Positions 1 to 25,106 of a DNA stretch of 64,000 nt are shown piece after piece. Made by a program: the position numbers and the translations under genes. Source of the stretch: Solirubrobacteraceae bacterium (GTDB lineage: Bacteria > Actinomycetota > Thermoleophilia > Solirubrobacterales > Solirubrobacteraceae); contig JAWVFR010000078.1 of NCBI GenBank assembly GCA_033855845.1, positions 10,013 through 74,012 of the forward strand, read 5' to 3'. The first letter of the stretch is position 1; every line of letters starts with the position of its first letter. The notes beneath the pieces were generated by a model. The model had not been told where the DNA came from. It made no database searches and was given only the letters and a program-made list of their open reading frames with translations.

Positions 1-654
1 CCCGCCGCCGGATTCGCCGGCGTCAACGTGACGCTGCCCCACAAGGCCGCCGGGCTCGCGCTCGCCGACTCCGCCACCGAGGCCGCTCGGGCGATCGGCG
101 CCGCCAACAGCCTCACGTTCGCGGACGGCGCGATCGAGGCCGACAACACCGACGCGCCGGGATTCCTGGCCGCGCTCGACACGCCCGCGCAGGGCCTGCG
201 CGCCACCGTCCTGGGCGCCGGAGGCAGCGCGCGCGCCGTGGTGTGGGCCCTGCGCGAGGCGGGCGCCGCCGACGTCGCCGTGTGGAACCGCACCCCCGAG
301 CGCGCGCGGGCTCTGGCGGACGAGCTCGGCGCCCGCGCGGTGTCCGCCCCGGAGCCGGGCGACCTGCTGGTCAACTGCACCTCCGTGGGCCTGGACCCCG
401 GAGCCGACCCCTTCGAGCACCTCCCGCTGACGTCCGGCGACCTCGCCGGCTGGGGTCGCGTCGTCGACCTCGCCTACGCGGGCGACGGCGCCACCGCCTT
501 CCTGCGCGCGGCCCGCGAGGCCGGCGCGACGACCGTGGACGGGCTCGAGGTCCTGGTGCGCCAGGGGGCGCTCAGCTTCGAGCGCTGGACCGGGGTTCCC
601 GCTCCGCTGGACGCCATGCGCGCCGGGGCGGGCGTCCAGGCGCGCGGCGAGTAG
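1..654 (+). CDS. aroE: shikimate 5-dehydrogenase, 5' end cut by window edge
   Basis: Frame 1 is open from nt 1 and reads PAAGFAGVNVTLPHK (NVTxPHK motif), then VLGAGGSARAV (NADP glycine loop). Stop at 652-654. Confidence 0.85.
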   Translation, partial: PAAGFAGVNVTLPHKAAGLALADSATEAARAIGAANSLTFADGAIEADNTDAPGFLAALDTPAQGLRATVLGAGGSARAVVWALREAGAADVAVWNRTPERARALADELGARAVSAPEPGDLLVNCTSVGLDPGADPFEHLPLTSGDLAGWGRVVDLAYAGDGATAFLRAAREAGATTVDGLEVLVRQGALSFERWTGVPAPLDAMRAGAGVQARGE

Positions 655-807
655 GTCAAGCGCCGCCCGGCCGGGGCCGATGCAGACCGGGAGGTGGCCC
701 TCGATCGGTTCCGCACGCCAGGGCTTCAGTCCCAGGCCGAACCGCCCGATAGAGACGGAGAGAAATGCGTCTCCGGTCACGAGCGCGCGCCGCCCGCGAC
801 CACCGCC

Positions 808-2601
808 ATGGACTCCGAGAACCGGCCACATCTGCGGTCCGTCGACCACGGACCAGAGAGCGAGGGTGCCCTCGCTCGCAAGCCCCAGCCCGCGAAGGCC
901 AACCCGGGCATCACGGCGCCGAGCCGCCGCGGCGGCTCGGGCCGGTTCCTGACCGACGTCGTGGTGGAGATGGGCTTCGTGGACCGCCAGGCCGTCGACG
1001 CCGCCATCGACGCCGCCCGCACCGCGGGGCGCACCCCCGAGCAGGTCCTCCAGGAGCAGGGAAGCCTGACCCAGGACCAGGTGGCCCGCGCCGTGGCCGA
1101 GCGCTACGGCCTGGACCACCTGGACCTCAACGTCTTCACCATCGACATGGGCGCCGCGAACCTGATCAGCGCCTCCGCTGCCAAGCGCTACGAGGCGGTG
1201 CCGATCGCCTTCGTGGACGAGCGCACGCTGATGGTGGCGATGGTCGACCCCAGCAACGTGCTCGCGGTCGACGACATCGCGATCATGACCGGGCTGGAGG
1301 TGCGCCCGGCCGTCGCCTCACGGGAGGACGTCTCCGCCCTGATCTCTCGGCTGAACCGCCTGGACGACGTCGTCCAGGGCGTCGTGGAGGAGGAGGACGA
1401 GCAGCATCCCGCCGAGGTCGTCGACCTGCGCGAGTCCGCCGACGACGCGCCGGTCATCAAGCTCGTGCACTCGATCGTCGCCCAGGCCGTCGACCAGGGC
1501 GCATCGGACATCCACTTCGAGCCCGACGGCAGCGAGATGCGCGTGCGCTTCCGTGTGGACGGCATGCTGGCCAGTTCGGCCACGGTCCCGCGCCGGATGG
1601 TCCGCGGCGTCGTCTCGCGCATCAAGATCATGGCCGACCTCGACATCTCCGAGCGCCGCCTGCCCCAGGATGGCCGCGTGGGTCTGAACATCGAGGACAA
1701 GCACATCGACGTCCGCGTGGTCACGCTGCCCAGCGTCCATGGCGAGTCGGTGGTCATGCGCATCCTGGACAAGGACTCGGTGGTCGTCGACCTCGACAAG
1801 CTGGGGATGTCCCCGGACGAGCGCGACCGCTACGAGGACGGCTTCACCCAGGCCTACGGCGCGGTCCTGGCCACGGGCCCGACCGGCTCGGGCAAGTCGA
1901 CCACGCTGTACGCGGCGCTCCAGCACATCAACACCACCGACAAGAACATCATCACGATCGAGGACCCGGTCGAGTACCAGGTGGACGGGATCACGCAGGT
2001 GCAGGTCAACCCCAAGGCGGGGCTGACCTTCGCCAACGGGCTGCGCTCCATGATGCGCGCGGACCCCGACGTGATCATGGTGGGGGAGATCCGCGACTCC
2101 GAGACCGCGAAGATCGCGATCGAGTCGGCCCTCACCGGGCACCTCGTCCTCTCCACGCTGCACACCAACGACGCGCCGACGGCGATCACGCGGCTGCTGG
2201 AGATGGGCATCGAGCCCTTCCTGGTGGCGAGCGCCATCGACTGCGTGGTGGCCCAGCGCCTGGCGCGCACCCTGTGTCCGACCTGCAAGAAGCGCACGCT
2301 GATCCCCGCCGCGGTCCTGCGCGAGAGCGGCTTCACGGCCCAGTACGACCTGGAGGCCTACGAGCCCGCCGGCTGCGGTCGCTGCGGCCAGACGGGCTAC
2401 AAGGGCCGCACCGGCCTCTACGAGGTCATGAAAGTCAGCACCGAGGTCCGCGACCTGATCCTGGAGCGCGCGTCGGCCGACCGCATCGCCGCCGTGGCCG
2501 TCGAACAGGGCATGCGGCGCCTGCGCGACGACGGCCTGGAGAAGGCCCGCCAGGGCCGTACGTCCATCGCCGAAGTTGCACGAGTGACGGATTCCGGCTG
2601 A
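808..2601 (+). CDS. pilB: type IV pilus assembly ATPase PilB (GspE family)
   Basis: ORF 694-2601 has a T2SSE_N-like N-terminus, Walker A GPTGSGKSTT and a tetracysteine CPTC...CGRC. Start set at ATG 808 because codons 694-807 carry many A/T third positions, unlike the rest. GTG 694 is the alternative. Confidence 0.9.
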   Translation: MDSENRPHLRSVDHGPESEGALARKPQPAKANPGITAPSRRGGSGRFLTDVVVEMGFVDRQAVDAAIDAARTAGRTPEQVLQEQGSLTQDQVARAVAERYGLDHLDLNVFTIDMGAANLISASAAKRYEAVPIAFVDERTLMVAMVDPSNVLAVDDIAIMTGLEVRPAVASREDVSALISRLNRLDDVVQGVVEEEDEQHPAEVVDLRESADDAPVIKLVHSIVAQAVDQGASDIHFEPDGSEMRVRFRVDGMLASSATVPRRMVRGVVSRIKIMADLDISERRLPQDGRVGLNIEDKHIDVRVVTLPSVHGESVVMRILDKDSVVVDLDKLGMSPDERDRYEDGFTQAYGAVLATGPTGSGKSTTLYAALQHINTTDKNIITIEDPVEYQVDGITQVQVNPKAGLTFANGLRSMMRADPDVIMVGEIRDSETAKIAIESALTGHLVLSTLHTNDAPTAITRLLEMGIEPFLVASAIDCVVAQRLARTLCPTCKKRTLIPAAVLRESGFTAQYDLEAYEPAGCGRCGQTGYKGRTGLYEVMKVSTEVRDLILERASADRIAAVAVEQGMRRLRDDGLEKARQGRTSIAEVARVTDSG

Positions 2602-2648
2602 TCTGCCGATAAGACCCTGACCCCCCGGCCACCTACCCCTCCGAATCT

Positions 2649-3728
2649 ATGAACTTCGACTTCGCAGACGTCCTCATGGAAGTGCTCGAGCGCCGCGCCT
2701 CCGACCTGCACATCGCGGCCGGCGCGCCGCCCACCATCCGCATCCGCGGGCGCCTGGTCGCGCTCGAGGACTACCCCCGCCTGACCCCTTCGGACACGCG
2801 CGAGATCGTCTACTCGATCCTCGGCAACGACCAGCGCCAGCGGCTGGAGACCGACCTGCAGGTCGACCTGGCCTACGCCATCCCCGGGCGCGCGCGCTTC
2901 CGCGTCAACGCCTACTTCCAGCGGGGCGCCATCGGCGCCGCCTTCCGCCTGATCCCGGCGAACATCGCCGGCATCGACGAGCTGGGCCTGCCGCCGATCG
3001 TGCACGAGCTGACCAAGAAGCCCCGCGGCTTCGTGCTGTGCACCGGCCCCACCGGCTCCGGGAAGTCCACCAGCCTCGCGGCGATGATCAACGAGATCAA
3101 CGAGACCCGCGAGGAGCACATCATGACGGTGGAGGATCCGATCGAGTTCCTGCACCAGCACAAGAAGTGCCTGGTCAACCAGCGCGAGCTGGGCAGCGAC
3201 GCGATCACGTTCACCGACGCCCTGCGCGCCGCCCTGCGTCAGGACCCCGACGTCATCCTGGTCGGCGAGATGCGCGACCTGGAGACCATCTCCACCGCGC
3301 TGACCGCGGCCGAGACCGGCCACCTCGTCTTCGCGACCCTGCACACGCAGGACACGCCGCAGACGATCGACCGCATCATCGACGTGTTCCCGCCCCACCA
3401 GCAGCACCAGGTGCGCGTCCAGCTGTCGGTCGCCCTGCAGGGGATCATCACCCAGACCCTGCTGCCGACCGCCGATGGCGCGGGCCGCTGCCTGGCCGCC
3501 GAGGTGCTGGTGCCCACGCCGGCCATCCGCAACCTGATCCGCGAGGGCAAGACGCACCAGATCTACTCGGTCCTGCAGACCAGCGCGTCGGCCGGCATGC
3601 AGACCATGGACTCCTCGCTGGCCAACCTGGTCCGCACCGGCCGCATCACCCGGCAGCTGGCGGAGCAGCGTTCCACGACCCCGGACGAGCTGCGCCGCCT
3701 GCTGGGCGCGACTCCGATGGCCGCCTAG
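2649..3728 (+). CDS. pilT: twitching motility (retraction) ATPase PilT
   Basis: 359 aa with a typical PilT N-terminus (ASDLHI...PPxIRI), Walker A GPTGSGKSTS and DPDVILVGEMRD. Confidence 0.92.
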   Translation: MNFDFADVLMEVLERRASDLHIAAGAPPTIRIRGRLVALEDYPRLTPSDTREIVYSILGNDQRQRLETDLQVDLAYAIPGRARFRVNAYFQRGAIGAAFRLIPANIAGIDELGLPPIVHELTKKPRGFVLCTGPTGSGKSTSLAAMINEINETREEHIMTVEDPIEFLHQHKKCLVNQRELGSDAITFTDALRAALRQDPDVILVGEMRDLETISTALTAAETGHLVFATLHTQDTPQTIDRIIDVFPPHQQHQVRVQLSVALQGIITQTLLPTADGAGRCLAAEVLVPTPAIRNLIREGKTHQIYSVLQTSASAGMQTMDSSLANLVRTGRITRQLAEQRSTTPDELRRLLGATPMAA

Positions 3729-12689: not shown

Positions 12690-13999
12690 GCGCAGACTCC
12701 GCTCGTGGAGAGCGTCAGGGTGGTCGTCGCCGTGCCCGCGGCGGTGAAGTTGTTCACGGTGGCGAACGCTCGCCTGTTGTTGCCGTCGGCGCAGATGAAG
12801 TAGCGGCCGAAGGGATAGCCAGGGCTGGGCAGGGCGCCCGAGGCGTTGGTCAGCTGGGTCGGGTACGTGGATCCACACCCGCTGTCCAGCGGCGTGACGA
12901 AGACGCGCGCGTTCTGGAGCAGCACGCCGGAGCTGTTCTTGACCGCGAGGTTGACCGCCGGGACGCGCACCGTGACGTTGAAGGTGCCGCCGGGGGTGAC
13001 GGCCACCAGGCCCGCGTTGGCCGTGTAGTAGTTGGCGTCGTAGGTCGTCGGGTCGTTCGCGGCGCAGTCGCCGGCGAAGGTCCCATAGCCCCCCGTGAAC
13101 GGGTAGAGCGTCGCGAAGGAGATCGTGTTCGACGACGCCGGCCACGAGGACAGCGTGGTCGACTTGCGCCCGGGGGAGGGGAGGTTGGGGTTGGCCACGC
13201 TGGCCGCGCGCGCGGCGGCGGGCACCGGGTCGGCGCTGAGAACCTTGGTGGCGAAGCTGACGTTGATCGTGCTGGGTACCTCGAGCTCGATCGTGTCCAG
13301 CGTGGTGGCTCCGTCGACCACGTCGACGGAGTCGCTGATGTTCGAGCTCCCGGAGCGGTCGACGAGCCCCGTCGCGGCCACCGTGACCGTGTGCGTGGCG
13401 GCCGGGACCATGGGGAACACGGCGCAGCCGGCCTCGTTGGTGGTGTCCGACAGCGCCGTGGAGGGACCGGTGAGGTTGACGGTGAGCCCGGGGCGTGGAT
13501 TGCCCGCACGGTCGGTCACCAGGACGGCGAGCGTTCCCTGGCCCGGGGCGAAGGCGCCGTTGGGCGGGGTGAGCAGGCTGGTCGAGGTCACGGGGGATCC
13601 CGTCCGCCCGTCCACCGGGGTCACGGTGGACACGAGCTTGAGGTAGCTGGCCGCGCTGGAGTCGTTGGTGCAGCTGATCGTGCCGCTGCTGTCGCGCAGC
13701 CACTGCGTGCTCGAGGTGACCGTGTAGGGGACGCCGCCGACCGTCACGGTGCGCGTCTCGCGGAAGTTGGAGAGCGCGGTCGCCTTGAAGGAGCGCATGC
13801 GCTCCTGGTCCTGCTCGGCCAGGGTGGCCGCGATCGAGCGCACGCGGTTCTTGGTGGCCGTCTTGACGGCGCCCTCGACGCCGCTGAACACGGCGGTGCT
13901 GACCGCAGCGAGCGCGAGCGCCGCGAACATGACCTCGATGAGGATCCCGCCGCGCTGGCTGCGCAGCGACGGGCGCCGGATACGGGAGAAGGGACGCAT
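12686..13999 (-). CDS. large minor pilin, PilV-like, with CarboxypepD_reg-like Ig domains (437 aa)
   Basis: N-terminus SQRG|GILIEVMFAALALAAV (Glu +5) plus SIAATLAEQ. Internal LAVLVTDRAGNPRPGLTVNLTG...TNEAGCAVF resembles a carboxypeptidase-regulatory fold. Confidence 0.65.
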   Translation of the reverse strand: MRPFSRIRRPSLRSQRGGILIEVMFAALALAAVSTAVFSGVEGAVKTATKNRVRSIAATLAEQDQERMRSFKATALSNFRETRTVTVGGVPYTVTSSTQWLRDSSGTISCTNDSSAASYLKLVSTVTPVDGRTGSPVTSTSLLTPPNGAFAPGQGTLAVLVTDRAGNPRPGLTVNLTGPSTALSDTTNEAGCAVFPMVPAATHTVTVAATGLVDRSGSSNISDSVDVVDGATTLDTIELEVPSTINVSFATKVLSADPVPAAARAASVANPNLPSPGRKSTTLSSWPASSNTISFATLYPFTGGYGTFAGDCAANDPTTYDANYYTANAGLVAVTPGGTFNVTVRVPAVNLAVKNSSGVLLQNARVFVTPLDSGCGSTYPTQLTNASGALPSPGYPFGRYFICADGNNRRAFATVNNFTAAGTATTTLTLSTSGVCA

Positions 14000-14134
14000 G
14001 ACCTCGCGTGCGTATCGGCAGCCGTGCCTGGTTTCCTTGAGCGCGGCACGCCCGTGGGCGTCGGGAACTGGACGCCTGTTGGGCTGGACGGATGGGCTCT
14101 CAGAGAAGTCGCCGCATCTGCCGATGGGTCGCCC

Positions 14135-16843
14135 ATGTCACCGGGTGCCCGCCTCCGACTCGTCGTGCTGGCCGCCGCCGCCGTGGCGGCGCTGGCCGCC
14201 GCGCCCGCGGCCCAGGCCGACGTCCTGGTGAGCCACGTCGGGTCCACACTCACCGAGACCACCGGCAACGGGGACGGGCTGGTCGCCCCGGGCGAGGGCT
14301 TCGCCCTGACCGAGCGCATCGCGAACTCGGACTCGCTCGTGCCCTCGATGACCGGCGTGACGGGCACGCTCGCGTACGACCCCGGGACCACGGCCCAGGC
14401 CGGCCCCCCGCTGGTCAGCCTCGCCAACGTCTTCTCCAACTACCCGAACCTGGCCTTCGGCGCCCAGGGCGACAACCAGGCCTCCTACACCGGGACGCTC
14501 GCCAGCGCGGCGGAATGCGGGGTCAACCTGCCCTTCGTCCTGTCGGTCGCCAGCGACCAGGGACCGTCCACCGTCCCGTTCCAGGTCCGGACGGGCCTGG
14601 CCGGTCCGAGCGTGGCGTGGGACAGCGTCGACGTGCCCCACGCGATCCCCGACGGCGCCGCGACGCAGTCGAGCCTGGCTGTGTCGGCGGCCGGGCGCGT
14701 CAAGGACGTCCGGGTCCGCATTGGCTCGATCCCGCATACGCGCACGGGAGACGTGAAGATCGAGCTGGTCTCACCCAGCGGGGCCTCGGTCGTGCTGGTG
14801 AACGCGGAGGGCGGCAACGGCCAGGACTTCTCCAACACGACCTTCTCGGACTCCGCGGCCCAGACCATCGTCGGCGCCGCCGCGCCCTTCACCGGCACCT
14901 ACCGCCCCTTGGAGCCGCTGTCCAAGATGATCGGCCGCTCCCAGCAGGGCACGTGGTACCTGCGGGTCACCGATCAGGCGGCCGGCAACACCGGTCAGAT
15001 CGCCGCGTGGGGGGTGGACGTCCGCACCGCCGTTTGCAACGCCAACCCGATCGCCTCCTTCACCGCTACGCCCAACCCGGCCCTGCCGGGGCAGGCCATC
15101 GCGCTGGACGCCTCGGGCTCCGTCTCGCCGACCGGCACGATCGCCAAGTACGAGTGGGACGTGAACAACACCGGAACCTTCGTGGACCGGGGCACGGTCC
15201 CGACCCACTCGGCCACCTTCCCCACGCGCGGCAGCTATCCGGTCACGCTGCGGGTCACCGACGGCCTCGGCCGTCAGAGCACGAGCGTCGTGAACCTCAG
15301 CGTCACCGTGCCGCCGACCGCGGCGATGACCTCATCGCCGGCGTCGCCCCTCACCGCGGAGGACGTCACGCTGGACGCCTCGGGCTCCACCGACCCCGAC
15401 GGGCTCCCGATTGCCAAGTACGAGTGGGACCTGACCGGGACCGGCACGTTCACGCGCGACACGGGAACCACGCCCACGACGACGGTCCAGTTCGCCACTC
15501 CCGGCACCAAGACCGTGCGCGTGCGCGTGACCGACGTCGACGGCGCGACCGCGGTCGCGTCTCGCGACATCGTGGTGGCCAACCGTCCGCCGGTCGCCGC
15601 CCTGGCCGTGCCCACGCCCGCGGTGGTCGGGGTCCTGGCCACGTTCGACGCCGGAGCCTCCACGGACCCCGACGGGGCGATCGTGCGCTACGAGTGGGAC
15701 CTGGACGGCTCCGGCACCTACGCGACCGACACCGGCAACGTCTCCACCCTTCCGCACACCTTCAACGCGTCCGGCACGTACCCGATCGGCGTGCGGGTCA
15801 CCGACGACCAGGGCGTCGTGTCGACGATCGTGCAGCAGGTGGTCGCCACCCGCGCCCCGGTGCCCAGCTTCACCGCCTCGGCCAACCCGACGTCGCTCCA
15901 CCGGCCCGTCAGCTTCGACGCGACCGCCTCCGCCGATCCCGACGGCACCATCGCCCGCCACGAGTGGGACCTGGACGGCAACGGGACCTTCGAGACCGAC
16001 ACCGGCTCCAGCCCGCTGGCATCGCATGTCTACGACCAGAACGGGACCTACGCGGTCAAGCTGCGGGTGACGGACGACAAGGGCGCGCAGGCGCAGCACA
16101 CGGTCAACCTCGTGGCCGCCAACCTCGCTCCGACGCCCGCGCTCAGCGTCAATCCCGGGCGGGTGCCGGCGGGCCAGCCCGTCACCCTCGACGCCGGCGG
16201 CTCCAGCGACCCCGACGGCACGATCGTCAAGTACGAGTGGGACCTGGACGGCAACGGCACCTTCGAGAAGTCGACCGGCGCGACGTCCTCGCTCACACGG
16301 TCATATCCCAATCCCGGCGGCTTCACCGTCGGGGTGCGCATCACCGACAACGACGGTGCGACCCGCACGACCACGCAGTCGCTGACGGTCCTCGACGCGC
16401 CGGCCGGGGGCCCCGGCAGCGGGCCCGGCGGCTCGGACCCCGGCTCGGGCGGCTCCGGCGACCCGGGCGGCTTCCCGAGCGTTGCCACCGGGCCCCTCCG
16501 CGCCACGCTGAGCGGCAGCCCGCTGCAGCGGATCGCCGCCGTCACGCTGCGCGGACTGGCCGTGGGCTGCCAGGCCGACCGGGTCGCGACATGCGCCCTG
16601 GTGCTCGAGCTGCGGGCCGCGGATGCCCGCCGCCTGGGCCTGCGCACCGCGCGCACCATCGTCCTGGGCCGCGCCACGCTCTCCGTCCGCTCGGCCGGCA
16701 TCCGGACCGGGCGCGTGCGTCTCACCGCCTACGGCCGCTACGTCCTGCGGCGCGCACCGAAGGTGCTCGTGGTCATGCGCGCCACCGTGCGCGCCAGCGC
16801 GCTCTCGGTGCGCCTCTCGCGGACCTTCCTGCTGCGCCGCTAG
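14135..16843 (+). CDS. secreted proprotein-convertase P-domain + 5x PKD-domain protein (902 aa), candidate adhesin
   Basis: ATG 14135 is in frame with ORF 13391-16843. Signal peptide ends ...AAQA|DV. P-domain motifs: PHTRTGDVKIELVSPSG..GTWYLRVTD..G.IAAWGVDV. Five PKD repeats (YEWDLDGNGTFE), a G/S/P linker and an Arg-rich C-terminal domain. Confidence 0.8.
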   Translation: MSPGARLRLVVLAAAAVAALAAAPAAQADVLVSHVGSTLTETTGNGDGLVAPGEGFALTERIANSDSLVPSMTGVTGTLAYDPGTTAQAGPPLVSLANVFSNYPNLAFGAQGDNQASYTGTLASAAECGVNLPFVLSVASDQGPSTVPFQVRTGLAGPSVAWDSVDVPHAIPDGAATQSSLAVSAAGRVKDVRVRIGSIPHTRTGDVKIELVSPSGASVVLVNAEGGNGQDFSNTTFSDSAAQTIVGAAAPFTGTYRPLEPLSKMIGRSQQGTWYLRVTDQAAGNTGQIAAWGVDVRTAVCNANPIASFTATPNPALPGQAIALDASGSVSPTGTIAKYEWDVNNTGTFVDRGTVPTHSATFPTRGSYPVTLRVTDGLGRQSTSVVNLSVTVPPTAAMTSSPASPLTAEDVTLDASGSTDPDGLPIAKYEWDLTGTGTFTRDTGTTPTTTVQFATPGTKTVRVRVTDVDGATAVASRDIVVANRPPVAALAVPTPAVVGVLATFDAGASTDPDGAIVRYEWDLDGSGTYATDTGNVSTLPHTFNASGTYPIGVRVTDDQGVVSTIVQQVVATRAPVPSFTASANPTSLHRPVSFDATASADPDGTIARHEWDLDGNGTFETDTGSSPLASHVYDQNGTYAVKLRVTDDKGAQAQHTVNLVAANLAPTPALSVNPGRVPAGQPVTLDAGGSSDPDGTIVKYEWDLDGNGTFEKSTGATSSLTRSYPNPGGFTVGVRITDNDGATRTTTQSLTVLDAPAGGPGSGPGGSDPGSGGSGDPGGFPSVATGPLRATLSGSPLQRIAAVTLRGLAVGCQADRVATCALVLELRAADARRLGLRTARTIVLGRATLSVRSAGIRTGRVRLTAYGRYVLRRAPKVLVVMRATVRASALSVRLSRTFLLRR
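15038..16396 (+). repeat. five tandem PKD-domain coding repeats (270/273-nt period)
   Basis: The (T/C)ACGAGTGGGAC (Y/H-E-W-D) codons recur at 15149, 15419, 15689, 15959 and 16232. Confidence 0.85.
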
Positions 16844-17262
16844 AGCGGCGGCGCGTCGACCACGAGCCGCCCGATCACGCGGCCGGTGCCGCGCAGGCGG
16901 ATCGGGAACGTCCCGCCCCGCAGGGCGAAGAACTCGAACCGGGCCGGGGAGAACCGGTCCACGGGCTCGAACCGGCCCAGCCCCACGAGCTCCACCTCGT
17001 CGGGGCTCGGGGACTTCACCTGCAGGCGCAGGAGCGCTCCACGGCGCACGCGCACCACCGCGGGCCGGCGGGCGGCCGAGTCGATCGTGAACGCGGCTAC
17101 GGCGGCTCCGGGGACGGTCCCACCGGTCGCCCGGGGCGTGGTGGCGGTCGACGTGGTGGGGGCGTTGGTCATGCGGCCGCGGTCGCGCGGGGTCAGCGCG
17201 GCCGCCATCGCACCGGTGGCCAGCAGGACGGCAGCGAGGATCAGGAGCCGGCGACCGAGCAC
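16840..17262 (-). CDS. membrane-anchored hypothetical protein (possible ligand-less cupredoxin-like fold)
   Basis: 140 aa with an N-terminal TM/signal (LLILAAVLLATGAMAAAL), a Thr/Pro linker and a beta-rich C-terminus. GTG start. Its stop shares the CTAG with the convergent gene. Confidence 0.5.
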   Translation of the reverse strand: MLGRRLLILAAVLLATGAMAAALTPRDRGRMTNAPTTSTATTPRATGGTVPGAAVAAFTIDSAARRPAVVRVRRGALLRLQVKSPSPDEVELVGLGRFEPVDRFSPARFEFFALRGGTFPIRLRGTGRVIGRLVVDAPPL

Positions 17263-17382
17263 TCCTACAGCCTAGATGTCAGCCCTCCATGGACGAACGT
17301 CCGATGCGTGCAGGGGGATTTTGCGTCCAATCCCGTCAAGTTCTCCGCTACGGGTGCCGATTAGGTTGTCAGCCAGAGCCAA

Positions 17383-17460
17383 GGTGCCAAGGGCAAACCG
17401 TCCGCGAGGGCGGGACGCAAAGCCACGGTCCTCCCACCAAGAGGAAGCCGGGCTGCCACC
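17383..17460 (+). promoter_or_regulatory. c-di-GMP-I (GEMM) riboswitch-like aptamer in the pilin leader
   Basis: GGUGCCAAGGGCAAACC-GUCC-GCGA-GGGC-GGGACGCAAAGCC-ACGG-UCCUC-ccaccaa-GAGGA-AGCCGGGCUGCCACC. This shows the GGCAAACC and GGGACGCAAAGCC cores, a GNRA-capped stem, a second hairpin and a GGUG/CACC closing helix. It ends 92 nt before the pilin ATG. Confidence 0.75.
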
Positions 17461-17552
17461 AGGGTTCGTCGCAAGATCTCCGGCGGCATGGAGACCTGGG
17501 TCTGGTCATGAAGTTCCAGGCCAACTCTGGGTCCATCCAAAGGAGGATTCAA

Positions 17553-17969
17553 ATGCTGCATAAGCTCCGTAAGCGCATCGAGGACGAGAAGGGCTTCACC
17601 CTGATCGAGCTCCTCGTCGTCATTCTGATCATCGGCATCCTCGCCGCGATCGCCCTGCCGACCTTCCTTGGCCAGCGTGCCAAGGGCCAGGACTCCTCGG
17701 CCAAGTCGAACGCACGCAACATGGTGTCCCAGGTGGAGTCGTGCTACGCGACGACCCAGGACTACACCAAGTGCAATGTCGGTGACACGGCGATGGATAC
17801 CGGCGGGATCAGCAACACCACCGTGGCGCCCAACGCGACCGGTTACGTCGTGACTGCCACGTCGGACTCCAACAACACGTTCACGATCACGAAGTCGACG
17901 GCGGGCTTCGCTCGCACGTGCTCCTCCGCCGGCAATGCCAAGGGCGGCTGCAACGGCTCCAGCTGGTAG
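17553..17969 (+). CDS. pilA: major type IVa pilin
   Basis: SD AGGAGGA at 17541-17547 precedes ATG 17553. Sequence MLHKLRKRIEDEKG|FTLIELLVVILIIGILAAIALP is a classic prepilin cleavage/methylation site. Has two Cys pairs. 138 aa. Confidence 0.9.
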   Translation: MLHKLRKRIEDEKGFTLIELLVVILIIGILAAIALPTFLGQRAKGQDSSAKSNARNMVSQVESCYATTQDYTKCNVGDTAMDTGGISNTTVAPNATGYVVTATSDSNNTFTITKSTAGFARTCSSAGNAKGGCNGSSW

Positions 17970-18061: not shown

Positions 18062-18811
18062 ATGGCCATCGCCCTCGCCGCCGTCGGCGGCCTGCTCCTC
18101 GGTTCGTTCTTCAACGTCGTGATCGCCCGCCTCCCGCGCGGCGAGTCCCTGGCCTCGCCGGGGTCGCGCTGCCCGCACTGCGGCCACGCGGTGCGCCCCT
18201 GGGACAACGTGCCGTTGCTCTCGTGGCTGGTGCTGCGCGGACGCTGCCGGGACTGCGGCGCGCCCATCTCCGTGCGCTACCCCCTGGTCGAGGCCCTCAC
18301 GGGGGCCCTGTGCGCCGCGGTGGTCGTGGCCAAGGGGCCCGACGAGGATGCGCTGCTGGGCCTGGCGCTGGTCCTGACGCTGGTGCCGGTGACGTTCATC
18401 GACCTCGACCACCGGATCATCCCCAACAAGATCCTGCTGCCCTCGGCCGTGGCCGCCGTGGCCATCCTGGCGGCGACGAACGCGGACAGGCTCCCCGAGC
18501 ACCTGATCGCCGGCACGGCGGCGGGGGCCTTCTTCCTGCTGGCCGTGCTGGCCTACCCGAGCGGGATGGGGATGGGGGACGTGAAGCTGGCCGCGGTGCT
18601 GGGCCTGTACCTGGGCCAGGAGGTGGCGCCGGCGCTCCTGGCGGCCCTGGTCGCCGGGACGCTCGTGGGCGGCGTGATCATCGCGCGCAAGGGCGCCGCC
18701 GAGGGACGCAAGACCGCGGTGCCGTTCGGGCCGTTCCTGGCCCTGGGCGCGCTCGTGGGCCTGTTCGCGGGCCCCGAGATCGTCGACTGGTACCGCCAGA
18801 CCTTCCTTTAG
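18062..18811 (+). CDS. pilD: prepilin peptidase (A24 family)
   Basis: 249 aa. N-terminal Zn-ribbon CPHCGH...CRDCG, multiple TM segments, and MGMGDVKL and FGPFLALG motifs. Confidence 0.9.
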   Translation: MAIALAAVGGLLLGSFFNVVIARLPRGESLASPGSRCPHCGHAVRPWDNVPLLSWLVLRGRCRDCGAPISVRYPLVEALTGALCAAVVVAKGPDEDALLGLALVLTLVPVTFIDLDHRIIPNKILLPSAVAAVAILAATNADRLPEHLIAGTAAGAFFLLAVLAYPSGMGMGDVKLAAVLGLYLGQEVAPALLAALVAGTLVGGVIIARKGAAEGRKTAVPFGPFLALGALVGLFAGPEIVDWYRQTFL

Positions 18812-18926
18812 GACGGCCCTCAGGCGGCCAGGACGCCCGTGCGGCGCTCAAGGTGGACGGACGAATGGTCGATGCCTCCCCCGTCGGGTGCTCCGAGCGT
18901 CCGGAACCCAACTCCCTCCCACCGTC

Positions 18927-20000
18927 ATGGCAAGCAAGCGCAACCGCACCGTCGTCGGGCTCGACATCGAGCCCAGCCACCTCGCCGCCGCCGAGGCGAT
19001 CGTCAACGGCCGCGTGGCCGTGCAGCGCGCCGCCGTCGGCCCGCTGGCGCCCGGCCTCATGCGCGACGGCGAGGTCACCGACGTGGACGGGCTGTCCGCC
19101 GCGCTGAAGGACTTCTTCGCCGCCCACAAGCTCCCCAAGCGGGTCCGCCTGGGCGTGGCCAACCAGCGCATCGTGGTCCGGACGATCGAGCTGCCGTTGC
19201 TGAACCCCGGCCCCGAGCTGGAGGCCGCCGTGCGGTTCCATGCGCAGGAGAACATCCCCATGCCGCTCGACCAGGCCGTCCTGGACTACCAGGTGACCGG
19301 CCGGGTGGACGGCGAGCAGGGCGAGCGGCTGCGCGTCGTGCTGGTCGCGGCCCGCCGCGACATGATCGACCGCCTGGTCCAGGCCGCCCGCGGCGCCGGA
19401 CTGCGCCCCGAGGGCATCGACCTCTCCGCCTTCGCCATGATCCGCGCCCTGACGGCCGGCAGCGCCGTGGCCCCCGTGGCCGGCGCGATCCCCGGAGGGA
19501 CGCTGTACGTGAACGTCGCCGGCATGACCAACCTGGCCATCGCCGCCGGGTCCGCGTGCCACTTCACCCGCGTCGCGGTGGTCGGGCTGGACACGATGAT
19601 CGGCGAGCTCGCCGAGCGTCGGGGCCTGACCCTGGAGCACGCCGAGCAGTGGCTCACGCACGTCGGCCTGCAGGCGCCCATCGAGGCGGTCGAGGGCGAC
19701 CCGGAGATCGTCACCGACGCCCGCGCCGTGCTGGCGGCGGGCGCGGACCGCATCGTCGACGAGATCCGCAACTCGCTGGACTTCTACGCCGGACAGGGCG
19801 CCTCGGTGATCGTCGAGCGCGCCGTGGTCACCGGGCCCGCCGTCGCCGTGCCCGGCTTCGTCGCCCAGCTGGGCGCCGGGGTCACGATCCCCGTCGAGGC
19901 CGGGATGGTGGCCGAGGCGCAGCCCGGGGCGCTGCACGGCGTGGACGCCGCGTGCGTCACCGTGGCCGCGGGCCTGTCCGTGGCGGAGGCCGCGTCATGA
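18927..20000 (+). CDS. pilM: type IV pilus assembly protein PilM
   Basis: Actin-like ATPase fold starting VVGLDIEPSHLAAAE. ATG 18927 preferred over GTG 18888 because the extra codons have low GC3. Confidence 0.85.
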   Translation: MASKRNRTVVGLDIEPSHLAAAEAIVNGRVAVQRAAVGPLAPGLMRDGEVTDVDGLSAALKDFFAAHKLPKRVRLGVANQRIVVRTIELPLLNPGPELEAAVRFHAQENIPMPLDQAVLDYQVTGRVDGEQGERLRVVLVAARRDMIDRLVQAARGAGLRPEGIDLSAFAMIRALTAGSAVAPVAGAIPGGTLYVNVAGMTNLAIAAGSACHFTRVAVVGLDTMIGELAERRGLTLEHAEQWLTHVGLQAPIEAVEGDPEIVTDARAVLAAGADRIVDEIRNSLDFYAGQGASVIVERAVVTGPAVAVPGFVAQLGAGVTIPVEAGMVAEAQPGALHGVDAACVTVAAGLSVAEAAS

Positions 20001-21633: not shown

Positions 21634-22370
21634 GCGCCGTGCGCGACATCTGGGCCGACCTGGTCGACAAGCGGCTGTGGCCCCTGGCCATCGTCCTGGT
21701 CATCGCCCTCGTGGCGCTGCCCGTGCTGGTACTGAAGCCCGCTTCGTCCGCGGCTCCGACGCCACCCGCGCCCATCGCCGCCTCCCCCGACGGCACGCCC
21801 GTCGCGCAGCCCGCGGCGCTGGTGACCGATCCGGCGGCGATCGCCGAGGCGCGCTCCGGCGGGCCCGTCGACGGCAAGTTCAAGAACCCCTTCGCGCAGC
21901 AGCACGTCCCCAAGCCCAAGGCCCAGCCGACGTCCTCCGCCACCGCGTCGACCTCGAGCGCCACGGCGACCCCCGCGACCGGCACGGGCACGTCGTCGTC
22001 GGGCGGGTCGACCGGCAGCTCGACGCCGGCTCCCGCCGCCAAGCCCAAGCCGCGCGTACAGGTGACCAAGCTGCGAGTCCGCTTCGGCCCCTCCAGCGGC
22101 AAGCGCCCGCTGCGCGAGTTGGCGCCCGGCACCGCGCTGCCCAGCGTCAACGACCCGCTGCTCGTGTTCGTCGACGTCGACTCGCACGGCAAGGCGGAGT
22201 TCGTGGTCGCCTCGGAGGTGCAGCCGCAGGGCGACGGGCGCTGCACGCCCAGCCGCGCGATCTGCGCTCAGCTCTTCATGAAGTTCGGCGACACCGAGTT
22301 CCTGGACGTCACGCGGTCCAGCGGGACGGTCCAGTACCAGCTGGACGTGCTGGGCGTCGTCAAGCGCTGA
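21630..22370 (+). CDS. membrane-anchored protein at the PilP position, unknown family
   Basis: GTGA overlap with the pilO stop. N-terminal TM (LWPLAIVLVIALVALPVLVL), a Pro/Thr/Ser/Ala linker of about 110 aa, and a beta-rich C-terminal domain. Confidence 0.6.
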   Translation: MSAVRDIWADLVDKRLWPLAIVLVIALVALPVLVLKPASSAAPTPPAPIAASPDGTPVAQPAALVTDPAAIAEARSGGPVDGKFKNPFAQQHVPKPKAQPTSSATASTSSATATPATGTGTSSSGGSTGSSTPAPAAKPKPRVQVTKLRVRFGPSSGKRPLRELAPGTALPSVNDPLLVFVDVDSHGKAEFVVASEVQPQGDGRCTPSRAICAQLFMKFGDTEFLDVTRSSGTVQYQLDVLGVVKR

Positions 22371-22399
22371 CGCTCGCCCGGCCCTTAGTCTTGGCGCCC

Positions 22400-23563
22400 A
22401 TGGCGCTGCGTCTCATCACCGCGGGGGAATCGCACGGGCCCGGCCTGACGTGCATCGTCGAGGGCCTGCCCGCGGGCCTGGAGCTGTCCCCGGACGACCT
22501 CAACCGCGACATGGCTCGCCGGCAGCTGGGCCACGGCCGGGGCGGGCGCATGAAGATCGAGAAGGACTCCGCGCAGGTGACCGCCGGGGTTCGCCACGGG
22601 CGCACGCTGGGCAGCCCGGTGGCCCTGCAGGTGGCCAACCGCGACTACGCCAACTGGGAGGAGCGGATGAACCCGTGGCCGGTGGAGGCCGACGTGCCGG
22701 AGGTCCACCTGCCGCGCCCCGGCCACGCCGACCTGGTGGGCGCCCTGAAGTTCAAGCACTCCGACGTGCGCAACGTGCTCGAGCGCGCCAGCGCGCGCGA
22801 GACGGCCGCCCGGGTCGCGGGCGGCGGCCTGGCCAAGGCGCTCCTGCGCGCGCTGGGGGTGGAGGTGCGCTCCCACGTGGTGCGCATCGGCGGCGTCGCG
22901 GCGCCGGAGCGAGACGACCTGACGGTGGAGGACTTCGAGGGCGTCGACGACTCGCCCGTCCGCTGCCTGGACCCCGAGGCCGGCGCGGCGATGGTGGAGG
23001 AGATCAACCGGCTGCGCAAGGCCAACGAGTCCCTGGGCGGGATCTTCGAGGTGCGCGCCTTCGGCCTGGTCCCCGGCGTGGGGTCGCACGTGTCCTGGGA
23101 GGAGCGCCTGGACGGCCGCCTGGGCCAGGCGATCCTGTCCATCCACGCGATGAAGGGCGTCTCGGTTGGCCCGGGCTTCGAGATGGCGGCGCGCCCCGGG
23201 TCCGAGGTCCACGACGAGATCTTCTGGTCCGGCGAGCGCGGCTGGTTTCGCGAGACCAACCGCGCGGGCGGGGTGGAGGGCGGCATGACCACCGGCGAGC
23301 CGCTCGTCGTGGTGGGCGCCATGAAGCCGCTGCCCACGCTGACCAAGCCGCTGCGCTCGGTCGACACCGAGACCAAGGAGCCCGCGCCGGCGCTGCGCGA
23401 GCGCACCGACTCCACCACCGTCCCCGCGGCCGGCGTGGTGGGGGAGGCCATGGTCGCGCTGGTGCTGGCCGACGCCTACCTGGCGAAGTTCGGCGGCGAC
23501 CACATCGACGACGTGCGGGCCTCGCTGAACGCCTACCGGGAGCGCATCGATTGGCGGCGCTAG
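22400..23563 (+). CDS. aroC: chorismate synthase
   Basis: MALRLITAGESHGPGL..., GRGGRMKIE, RPGHAD, ERASARETAARVA. ATG 22400 is in frame with ORF 21677-23563. Confidence 0.93.
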   Translation: MALRLITAGESHGPGLTCIVEGLPAGLELSPDDLNRDMARRQLGHGRGGRMKIEKDSAQVTAGVRHGRTLGSPVALQVANRDYANWEERMNPWPVEADVPEVHLPRPGHADLVGALKFKHSDVRNVLERASARETAARVAGGGLAKALLRALGVEVRSHVVRIGGVAAPERDDLTVEDFEGVDDSPVRCLDPEAGAAMVEEINRLRKANESLGGIFEVRAFGLVPGVGSHVSWEERLDGRLGQAILSIHAMKGVSVGPGFEMAARPGSEVHDEIFWSGERGWFRETNRAGGVEGGMTTGEPLVVVGAMKPLPTLTKPLRSVDTETKEPAPALRERTDSTTVPAAGVVGEAMVALVLADAYLAKFGGDHIDDVRASLNAYRERIDWRR

Positions 23564-23576
23564 CGGTCCGCGGGTC

Positions 23577-25106
23577 ATGAGGCCGTCGCTGGTCTTCGCC
23601 GGCTTCATGGGGGCCGGGAAGACGACGGCCGCCCGCGCCGCGGGGCAGGCTCTGGGCAAGGATGCGGTCGACACCGACGAGCGCCTGGCCTGGGCGCTGG
23701 ACGAGCCGCTGGCGGAGTTCTTCGACCGCGAGGGCGAGGCCGCGTTCCGGGCGCGCGAGGAGGAGGTCGTGCTGGAGGCGCTGGAGGGCGCGGCGGGCGC
23801 GCCCGTGGCGCTGGGGGGCGGCGCGCTGGGCTCCGAGCGCGTGCGCGAGGCGCTGCAGCCACACACCGTCGTGTGGCTGGAGGTGGACCCCGAGACGGCC
23901 TGGACGCGGGCGAGCTCCCAGGGCGGCCGTCCGCTGGCCCGTGACCGCGACGCCTTCGAGGCCCTGCACGCGCAGCGCCTGCCCGCCTACGAGCGCGCCG
24001 CCGACGCGATCCTGCCCGACAGCGATCCCGCGGTGGTGCGGGCGGCGCTGCCCTACCTGCTCGCCCTGGCCGACGCGCCCGCCGGCACGCGGCTGGTGTG
24101 GGCGCGCAGCGCCTCGGGCGACTACCCGGTCCTGGCCGGGCCGGCGCTGCTGGAGACCGGCTGGTTCCCGGTCGCCGGCCGGCGCTTCGCGGTGAGCGAC
24201 CGCAACGTCTGGGACCTGCACGGCCGCCACCTGGAGCCGGTCGCGGGGAGCGTGCTGGTGGAGCCGGGGGAGACGTCCAAGACGCTGGCGTCGGCGGAGC
24301 TCGTGTGGCGCGCGCTGGCCCAGCAGGGGGCCACCCGCGACGACCTCGTGGTGGCGCTGGGCGGCGGCGTGGTCGGGGACCTGGCCGGCTTCTGCGCCGC
24401 CACCTACCAGCGCGGCGTGCGGGTGGTCCACGTCCCGACCACGCTGGTGGCGCAGGTCGACTCGGCCTACGGCGGCAAGACCGGCGTCGACATCCCCGAG
24501 GCCAAGAACTACGTCGGGGCCTACCACCAGCCGTCGGCGGTCCTGGTCGACCCCGCGGCCCTGCTCACGCTTCCCCCGGAGGAGCTGGCGGCGGGTTACG
24601 CCGAGGTGGTGAAGACCGCGCTGATCGCCGGCGGGCCGCTGTGGGAGCGCGTCCGCGACGGGGCCGGAGGCGCCGCCCAGCCCGACGTGGTCCTGGCCTG
24701 CGCGCGCACCAAGCTCGCCGTGGTGGCGCAGGACGAGCGCGACGCGGGCCGCCGTCAGGTCCTCAACCTCGGCCACACGGTCGGCCACGCGATCGAGACC
24801 GCCGCGGGCTACGGCCGCTACCGCCACGGCGAGGCGGTGGCGCTGGGCCTGCTGGCCGCGCTGCGGCTGTCCGGGCAGGACGACCTGCGCGACCAGATCG
24901 CCGAGCTGATGGCCGCGCACGGGCTTCCCGCGCGCCTGGAGGGCGTGGAGCCCGCGGCCGTCCTGGAGGCGGTGGGCCGCGACAAGAAGCGCCGCGCGGA
25001 GGGCCCGGTGCCCTTCGTCCTCGTCCACGCGCCCGGCGACGTGCGCGAGGGCGCCGCGGTGGCCGAGGACGACGTCCTCGCCGCCGTGCGAGAGTTGTGC
25101 ACGTGA
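23577..25106 (+). CDS. aroKB: bifunctional shikimate kinase / 3-dehydroquinate synthase (fusion)
   Basis: N-terminal GFMGAGKTT Walker A (shikimate kinase). From about residue 165, dehydroquinate synthase motifs GGGVVGDLAGF, VPTTLVAQVDSAYGGKTGV and LNLGHTVGHA. One continuous 509-aa frame. Confidence 0.9.
   Translation: MRPSLVFAGFMGAGKTTAARAAGQALGKDAVDTDERLAWALDEPLAEFFDREGEAAFRAREEEVVLEALEGAAGAPVALGGGALGSERVREALQPHTVVWLEVDPETAWTRASSQGGRPLARDRDAFEALHAQRLPAYERAADAILPDSDPAVVRAALPYLLALADAPAGTRLVWARSASGDYPVLAGPALLETGWFPVAGRRFAVSDRNVWDLHGRHLEPVAGSVLVEPGETSKTLASAELVWRALAQQGATRDDLVVALGGGVVGDLAGFCAATYQRGVRVVHVPTTLVAQVDSAYGGKTGVDIPEAKNYVGAYHQPSAVLVDPAALLTLPPEELAAGYAEVVKTALIAGGPLWERVRDGAGGAAQPDVVLACARTKLAVVAQDERDAGRRQVLNLGHTVGHAIETAAGYGRYRHGEAVALGLLAALRLSGQDDLRDQIAELMAAHGLPARLEGVEPAAVLEAVGRDKKRRAEGPVPFVLVHAPGDVREGAAVAEDDVLAAVRELCT

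Follow-up and report, generated by a model that had tools for sequence, protein, structure and literature searches.

Is cyclic di-GMP (c-di-GMP), a second messenger, read on the messenger RNA (mRNA) of an actinobacterial pilin, and by which route would such a reading act on pilin synthesis? The question is raised by a stretch of 64,000 nucleotides (hereafter the window) of contig JAWVFR010000078.1 from a Solirubrobacteraceae bacterium, in which an RNA element of the class I c-di-GMP (GEMM-I) type lies in the leader of pilA, the major pilin gene of a type IV pilus locus. Few studies have dealt with actinobacterial type IV pili, and most of what is known about how they are regulated comes from the work on RsiG and WhiG in Rubrobacter. 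From the analysis reported here we consider it likely that a canonical class I c-di-GMP riboswitch heads the pilA mRNA, that this mRNA is transcribed from a promoter of the sigma-28/WhiG type, and that the output of the switch is most probably exerted on translation.

The aptamer and its family assignment

All 64 kb were scanned with cmscan (Rfam 15) at the gathering threshold, and positions 17263-17600 were scanned again permissively (E <= 10) on both strands. The sole riboswitch match in the window is the aptamer in front of pilA (Table 1), which aligns with the full model (positions 1-80/80) of RF03167, the c-di-GMP-I-GGC family of clan CL00126; it scores 66.6 bits where the gathering score is 59 (E = 1.5e-13). 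One further family of this clan passes its own gathering score and two are matched at E <= 10; outside the clan the permissive scan of the two strands of 17263-17600 gives nothing, the minus strand being empty. The covariance model of c-di-GMP-II (RF01786), which an original prediction made from the sequence alone had named as a control, has no match at E <= 10 on either of the two strands of the same region. The central claim of that prediction, a GEMM aptamer in the pilin leader, is borne out by this match and by the bases at the ligand-contact positions described below; of its expected match to RF01051 the GEMM-I fold and clan were found, the family displayed being RF03167 instead.

The fold is that of a two-hairpin aptamer. 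The closing helix P1 is formed by GGUG (17383-17386) with CACC (17457-17460), the conserved block AAGGGCAAACC-GUCC-GCGA-GGGC-GGGACGCAAAGCC occupies 17389-17424, the first hairpin is capped by a GCGA tetraloop (17404-17407), and an AAA linker (17419-17421) joins it to a second hairpin, CGG-UCCUC-CCACCAA-GAGGA-(AG)-CCG (17421-17454). P1 and both hairpins are recovered in the unconstrained minimum-free-energy fold of 17375-17575. P1 and the second hairpin had been predicted in just this form, and so had the sequence of the conserved block, whose span had been given as ending at 17423, one base short. Among 63 homologues, compensatory changes are found in 6 of the 19 consensus pairs of the aptamer; P1 is GGUG/CACC in most of them and GCAG/CUGC in L053 and L062 (L numbers designate the loci compared). 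The identity and the conservation of the aptamer can be taken as shown.

In the Vibrio cholerae aptamer Vc2 the bases G20, A47 and C92 contact c-di-GMP (PMC4744006), and their equivalents in the window, taken from the alignment to RF03167, are G17392, A17419 and C17456, which match this canonical trio. The window aptamer also fits the published description of GEMM, where the AAA linker is near-invariant and one subtype has a GYRA tetraloop without a tetraloop receptor (PMC1950547). With Vc2, which belongs to RF01051, it shares the two-hairpin fold closed by P1, the blocks GGCAAACC, GGGACGCAAAGCC and AGCCGGGCU, the contact trio, the AAA linker, the GNRA-type tetraloop and the location in a 5' untranslated region. 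It differs from Vc2 in its second hairpin, which is short, G+C-rich and without tetraloop receptor, in its place directly before the gene of the major pilin in a type IV pilus locus of an actinobacterium, and in a long platform (91 nucleotides, nt) that has no terminator.

The best-scoring family for the window is RF03167 and not RF01051, and the aptamer might accordingly be a c-di-GMP-I-GGC variant with an altered pocket, which would bind another ligand or bind c-di-GMP poorly. In the consensus of RF03167, model positions 10, 37 and 75 are a conserved G, G and C, the first two immediately flanking the first inner helix on its 5' and 3' sides and the third immediately preceding the 3' strand of P1; this agrees with the 'GGC' of the variant name, which we take to stand for the bases at the three contact positions in the work of Weinberg et al. 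(2017). The window resembles RF03167 in helix lengths and composition, but at position 37, the equivalent of A47, where the consensus is G, it has A17419 and so lacks the defining base, while G17392 and C17456 are the same in both classes. Moreover, A stands at this diagnostic position in all 126 matches listed (126/126) for a pattern that permits A or G, the window's own contig (L001) included.

In the 20 related loci scanned, RF03167 outscores RF01051 on many A-carrying aptamers, which come from lineages as unrelated as Omnitrophota (L010), Rubrobacter (L071) and Actinomycetota (L026); L023 is likewise among the loci of this comparison. L112 (59.6 bits) and L170 (60.6 bits), which both belong to the pilin-leader family of the window, are instead assigned to RF01051 (gathering score 35), so that near-identical family members switch between the two labels. 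Because A-carrying aptamers of unrelated phyla also take RF03167 while L112 and L170 go to RF01051, we read the RF03167 label as one of helix lengths and G+C content, and not of the binding pocket. A variant pocket is therefore very improbable, even if RF03167 is the top-scoring family and exceeds its gathering score, and on account of the contact trio we file the window element as a presumably ordinary c-di-GMP-I aptamer of the GYRA-loop subtype without tetraloop receptor. There is a lesson for annotation here, since RF03167 beats the parent model on many aptamers with a canonical pocket: RF03167 labels of 'variant ligand specificity' need a check at the diagnostic base.

Still less probable is that the aptamer senses 3',3'-cGAMP (cyclic GMP-AMP), like GEMM-Ib of Geobacter, with which it has fold and clan in common. 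Kellenberger and Nelson are said to have found in 2015 that GEMM-Ib specificity goes with an A at the position equivalent to G20, but the window has G17392 there and not A.

Linkage to pilin genes and the promoter upstream

An aptamer pattern was searched in 185,579 GTDB species genomes and returned at least 120 loci. Among the matches listed, a pilin motif (G-F-T-L-I-E-L) follows within 700 nt downstream of 13 aptamers in 11 loci; pilin-linked aptamers are found in Solirubrobacterales (L041, L061, L078, L089), in metagenome-assembled genomes (MAGs) of Actinomycetota (L026, L053, L062, L112, L114) and in Acidimicrobiaceae (L069). A stricter pattern, which demanded CCACC as the 3' strand of P1, returned 80 metagenome contigs, in 76 of which the GFTLIEL start of a pilin lies 63-92 nt 3' of the aptamer, the other four contigs ending within 125 nt. 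Pilin thus follows aptamer in all 76 contigs that are long enough, which is strong evidence that aptamer and pilA form one functional unit. L041 and L078 have two tandem riboswitch-pilin units each; with their promoters, these are at L041:1160-1237 and 2019-2096 and at L078:835-915 and 1609-1689, and within either MAG the two leaders hardly differ.

The same observations bear on the possibility that the element is a decayed or chance aptamer-like sequence without regulatory role. Against it stand the E value of the match (1.5e-13), the covariation of the stems, a strictly kept place before pilins on 76 or more contigs, and the tandem duplication of the unit. By such conservation a decayed or chance origin appears effectively refuted, and we give it hardly any credence. 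The leader of pilA would then hold a conserved RNA-level sensor of c-di-GMP in front of the major pilin, across a lineage that is abundant in soil.

The link between GEMM and pili is not new in itself. GEMM has been tied to pilus and flagellar genes since 2007, with cpaA, pilM, pilO, pilQ and pulF among the genes listed (PMC1950547). A class I aptamer before a pilin extends this known association and is not a new kind of system, because GEMM-I has been linked to pilus genes since its discovery and a class II element controls pilA1 of Clostridium difficile. No report of a c-di-GMP riboswitch on an actinobacterial pilin was found in the searchable literature, and three features appear to be undescribed: a tight unit of riboswitch and pilA that runs through the lineage of Thermoleophilia-like actinobacteria; a promoter of the WhiG type paired with this unit, by which c-di-GMP would be able to act on one gene both via an anti-sigma factor and via RNA; and the recurrence of this pairing of promoter and riboswitch in Rubrobacter marinus and at loci encoding CAP-domain proteins (L013, L046, L066) or a GGDEF protein (L048).

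The promoter was sought upstream of the gene as TAAA-N15-17-GCCGATAA with at most 2 mismatches, the consensus of sigma-28/WhiG promoters. The sequence TCAA-N16-GCCGATTA, about 20 nt upstream of the aptamer, deviates from it at 2 of 12 positions. An equally good match occurs in 5 of 5000 random 43-nt windows of the same sequence, and there are four matches of such quality on both strands of the 64 kb. From the aligned upstream regions of 72 non-identical leaders a family consensus T.Aa-N15/16-G(Y)CGATA(C/A) was derived, in which CGA is invariant, and the distance from the end of the -10 box to GGCAAACC is 27-31 nt across the leaders. Among the genome matches listed, a sigma-28-like match with at most 3 mismatches accompanies 10 of the 13 pilin-linked aptamers as against 10 of 108 others, and the consensus is perfect in L026, L062 and Rubrobacter marinus (L071). 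The promoter-like motif is thus an observed feature of these leaders; from its position the transcription start would probably be at about 17370-17373, some 10-13 nt before P1, a distance that suits a riboswitch heading its mRNA.

Just upstream of the -35 element the window has a GCGTCCA box, and in 45 of 71 homologous leaders a (C/T)GT(C/T)(C/G)A box is found at a distance of 31-33 nt before the -10 element begins. The imperfect palindrome TGGACGAACGTCCG (17290-17303, + strand) also lies upstream of the -35 element. The region of the box and the palindrome may be the putative site of some further regulator.

In Rubrobacter radiotolerans, promoters of this kind (TAAA / GCCGATAA), whose start sites have been mapped, drive the type IV pilus cluster, and they need WhiG, which c-di-GMP-bound RsiG sequesters; a single-motif RsiG along with WhiG is reported for the Thermoleophilia Conexibacter, Patulibacter and Thermoleophilum (PMC8325347). 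In a 2026 preprint (PMC12871210), further actinobacterial families are added to those whose type IV pili are controlled by WhiG. The window has the same promoter type before type IV pilus genes, its organism belongs to the same basal actinobacterial group as Rubrobacter, and the messenger would be the same; in contrast to Rubrobacter, where control is exerted by proteins at initiation, an RNA sensor is added just downstream of such a promoter. The word riboswitch is absent from both papers (PMC8325347 and PMC12871210), and our results raise the possibility that a second c-di-GMP checkpoint has been overlooked in the published WhiG-dependent pilus transcripts.

On the chromosome of Rubrobacter marinus, a species of the genus in which WhiG was shown to control pili, the GGCAAACC core of a c-di-GMP-I aptamer at L071:159-241 (- strand) is preceded at 25 nt by a perfect TAAA-N16-GCCGATAA, and the locus ends 158 nt past the aptamer. 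Away from pilins, aptamers of the same type with a sigma-28-like promoter were found before secreted CAP-domain (PF00188) proteins in MAGs of Solirubrobacteraceae (L013:2538-3258, L046 and L066) and, in a MAG of Acidimicrobiaceae (L048:3521-5097), before a diguanylate cyclase with GGDEF. That the pair of promoter and riboswitch recurs in Rubrobacter marinus, at pilins of several Actinomycetota MAGs, at the CAP-domain proteins and at the GGDEF cyclase suggests that basal Actinomycetota have a WhiG/riboswitch regulon in common.

Expression platform, output and sign of the response

How could the aptamer act on pilA? The distance from its end to the ATG at 17553 is 91 nt, one less than had been predicted, and an intrinsic-terminator scan of this interval finds no stem followed by a T-run, as the original prediction had noted. 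The Shine-Dalgarno sequence (SD) AGGAGGA, at 17541-17547, is contained in a hairpin (Table 1) that is observed throughout the family: in all 72 leaders it pairs at least 3 of 6 SD bases, with a mean of -5.2 kcal/mol as against -2.8 kcal/mol in controls. The hairpin of the window is the strongest of all (-10.3 kcal/mol, 6/6 SD bases paired), and 2% of the controls with shuffled upstream sequence are as stable; in full-length folds of the window leader the SD has an unpaired probability of 0.04-0.05. The commonest version in relatives is GAUCC-C(U)AGGA-GGAUC. In this common hairpin, for example GAUCC-CUAGGA-GGAUC of L041, A-GGA is shown in the loop, which resembles the CsrA-type sites on sigma-28-dependent flagellin leaders.

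On the preferred reading the transcript would start at the sigma-28/WhiG-type promoter about 10-13 nt upstream of P1, and the aptamer would be made first and bind c-di-GMP while the remaining 91 nt of the leader are transcribed. The output would most likely be control of translation initiation, because no intrinsic terminator is present and the ribosome-binding site is inside a conserved hairpin; effects through Rho-dependent termination or mRNA decay would be secondary. Here the system departs from that of C. difficile, where pilA1 is controlled by a class II c-di-GMP riboswitch (Cdi2_4) that is a transcriptional ON switch acting via a terminator. In both cases the type IV pilin gene of a single-membrane bacterium has a c-di-GMP riboswitch in its leader, but the C. 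difficile aptamer is of class II (RF01786) and terminator-based, whereas the window has a class I aptamer and no terminator.

A real riboswitch could instead act mainly on transcription elongation, with termination in the 91-nt platform that depends on Rho or needs no U-tract, or on the half-life of the mRNA through access of RNases to the 5' end, the SD hairpin being then constitutive or protein-responsive. We hold this to be unlikely and nevertheless a serious alternative. In its favour, the SD hairpin is independent of the aptamer in our folding models, the transcript would by prediction have its 5' end either hidden in an extension of P1 or free, stable linker hairpins follow P1 in most leaders, and the GGA in the loop of the SD hairpin is, in a comparison of our own, like the sites of CsrA-type proteins. 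Against control by elongation or decay, there is no terminator-like site and no conserved hairpin that overlaps the 3' half of the aptamer.

For translational control, a plausible coupling element is the leader GCCAGAGCC at the very 5' end, which might either lengthen P1 or pair with boxes in the platform beside the anti-SD. Duplex prediction shows that GAGCC (17376-17380) can pair with GGUUC, and this extension of P1 is kept by a compensatory change in L146 (GAACC:GGUUC), many leaders having GAGCC:GGCUC. On the other side, GCCAGA (17372-17377) is the exact complement of a platform box UCUGGC that is conserved family-wide and has the form UCUGGU in the window, while a second leader-complementary box, CUCUGG (17525-17530), abuts the anti-SD. 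The best duplex of leader and platform falls on the UCUGGC box in 61 of 72 leaders, and RNAalifold predicts the helix from an anchored alignment of 44 leaders; when the whole leaders are aligned by MAFFT without anchors, it returns the aptamer only. We keep the leader:platform helix as a candidate only.

Several results weigh against a canonical riboswitch with translational output. Binding of c-di-GMP by the window aptamer is something we infer from its bases, and the RF01051 score of the window is hidden, as only the top family per clan is displayed. A classical sigma-70 promoter scan was negative, and a search limited to the 64-kb window found no RsiG motif in it (GGDEF and sigma-factor motifs were not found there either). 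In the leader:platform helix the six core pairs are invariant, and the flanks show no covariation beyond shuffles (258 and 366 of 2000 reach the observed value). When the aptamer was enforced or forbidden in equilibrium folding of 72 full-length leaders, the mean unpaired probability of the SD was 0.38 and 0.39, respectively, 67 of 72 leaders being unchanged; with the UCUGGC box free or blocked in 63 platforms it was 0.41 and 0.38, which is no effect. The accessibility of the AUG was likewise unchanged in both tests. Of the alternative pairings that might sequester the SD, for which the original prediction had proposed a search, a local hairpin is present, whereas an aptamer-dependent alternative is not seen in the folding models. 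The scheme in which the leader pairs with the UCUGGC box and thereby opens the SD was dropped, blocking of the box being without effect in the 63 platforms.

The sign of the response is the most conditional part of the mechanism: we lean slightly to repression of pilA at high c-di-GMP, which would fit the sequestration of WhiG by RsiG-(c-di-GMP). If so, c-di-GMP might be read twice on the pilin, first at initiation, where RsiG-(c-di-GMP) sequesters WhiG, and then on the nascent mRNA by the class I riboswitch; this is a tentative reading, which may well not hold. With both sensors of the same sign, pilin synthesis would be under a coherent double lock; should the riboswitch turn expression ON and bind with an affinity far above that of RsiG, pilin synthesis would be confined to an intermediate band of c-di-GMP concentrations. 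In either case the locus would offer a natural system for the study of how a protein and an RNA sensor of one messenger combine on one gene.

The type IV pilus locus

The features discussed here are collected in Table 1. The gene downstream of the riboswitch is a type IV pilin, as predicted, with the N_methyl domain and a leader peptide MLHKLRKRIEDEK followed by GFTLIELLVV..., and it stands in a complete type IV pilus locus, pilB, pilT and pilC being followed by pilA, pilD, pilM, pilN and pilO. The G+C content of the window is 73%. An identical stretch is present on the JGI metagenome contig Ga0467037_0002381, where the same pilA gene is called. Among named relatives the closest are MAGs of Solirubrobacterales/Solirubrobacteraceae: PilD shares 63% identity with its counterpart in L041, PilM shares 53% with its counterpart in L078, and the gene order pilA-pilD-pilM is common to the window, L041 and L078. 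This makes the organism a probable member of the Thermoleophilia, near the Solirubrobacterales.

Table 1. Positions of the riboswitch element, its promoter and leader features, and the surrounding genes in the window
Feature	Position	Strand	Remarks
aroE	1-654	+	
pilB	655-2601	+	MshEN fold + T2SSE
pilT	2613-3728	+	
pilC	to 4953	+	
Operon: Ig-like protein, N_methyl minor pilin, PilX_N-like protein	13999 down to ~10480	-	
Second sigma-28-type match	14012-14040	-	TCAA-N17-GCCGATAC; fronts minor-pilin operon
Large PKD/P-domain protein	ending 16843	+	
Small divergent open reading frame	16840-17262	-	
Intergenic region	17263-17552	+	290 nt; holds riboswitch element
GCGTCCA box	17323-17329	+	just upstream of -35 element
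Sigma-28 (FliA/WhiG)-type promoter	17336-17363	+	-35 TCAA 17336-17339; N16 spacer; -10 GCCGATTA 17356-17363
5' leader GCCAGAGCC	17372-17380	+	at or beside predicted transcription start; nearly invariant in leaders
c-di-GMP-I (GEMM-I) aptamer	17383-17461	+	RF03167 covariance-model match, full length
GGUUC	17463-17467	+	3' partner of leader GAGCC (duplex prediction)
Linker hairpin UCUCC/GGAGA	17477-17494	+	minimum-free-energy folds
Linker hairpin CCUGG/CCAGG	17495-17520	+	minimum-free-energy folds; contains UCUGGU 17501-17506
SD-sequestering hairpin	17525-17552	+	anti-SD GGGUCCAUCC 17529-17538 with GGAGGAUUC 17542-17550
pilA, type IV pilin	17553-17969	+	138 residues; PF07963 N_methyl, E = 3.2e-09
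G+C-rich hairpin, 13 bp, UUCG loop	17992-18021	+	81-nt stretch around hairpin: -51.7 kcal/mol, z = -5.25, 0/200 shuffles as stable
pilD, prepilin peptidase	18062-18811	+	PF06750, PF01478
pilM	18888-20000	+	PF11104
pilN, pilO	3' of pilM	+	PilN and T2SSM matches on identical JGI contig
aroC and fused aroK-aroB open reading frame	21677-25106	+	

A terminator of its own had been predicted for the pilin gene. The stable hairpin between pilA and pilD is there; it is followed by CGCGUUCU in place of a U-tract, and the consensus terminator scan does not call it, as a T-run is missing. It is likely to be a terminator or a 3' stabiliser, which would make pilA largely monocistronic.

A check of the N-terminal domain of PilB for an MshEN-type c-di-GMP site had also been proposed. 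Residues 151-235 have the MshEN fold (Pfam), and the published binding motif of MshEN is a tandem of 24-residue motifs, RLGxx(L/V/I)(L/V/I)xxG(L/V/I)(L/V/I)xxxxLxxxLxxQ (Wang et al., PMC5013675). PilB has no match to this motif, even in a relaxed form: in the best register, FLTDVVVEMGFVDRQAVDAAIDAA at residue 98, 8 of 11 positions agree and the hydrophobic scaffold is kept, the Arg, Gly and Gln contacts being missing. Because these contact residues are lacking, direct control of the PilB extension ATPase by c-di-GMP via MshEN seems unlikely. Before residue 98, PilB has an N-terminal extension of about 95 residues rich in Pro, Ala, Arg and Glu, and its true start codon is uncertain.

Two further promoter-like sequences are present in the locus. 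For the match in front of the minor-pilin operon, the ATG at 13999 (- strand) is 13 nt after the -10 box, so that the transcript would be almost leaderless. At the pilB/pilT junction, 2585-2612 (+ strand) has a perfect GCCGATAA as -10 element and a poor -35 element (TGAC), and ends 1 base before the annotated start of pilT; it may be a chance match, or the true start of pilT may be further downstream. Finally, the type IV pilus cluster is flanked by genes of the shikimate pathway, with aroE upstream and aroC and the fused aroK-aroB downstream.

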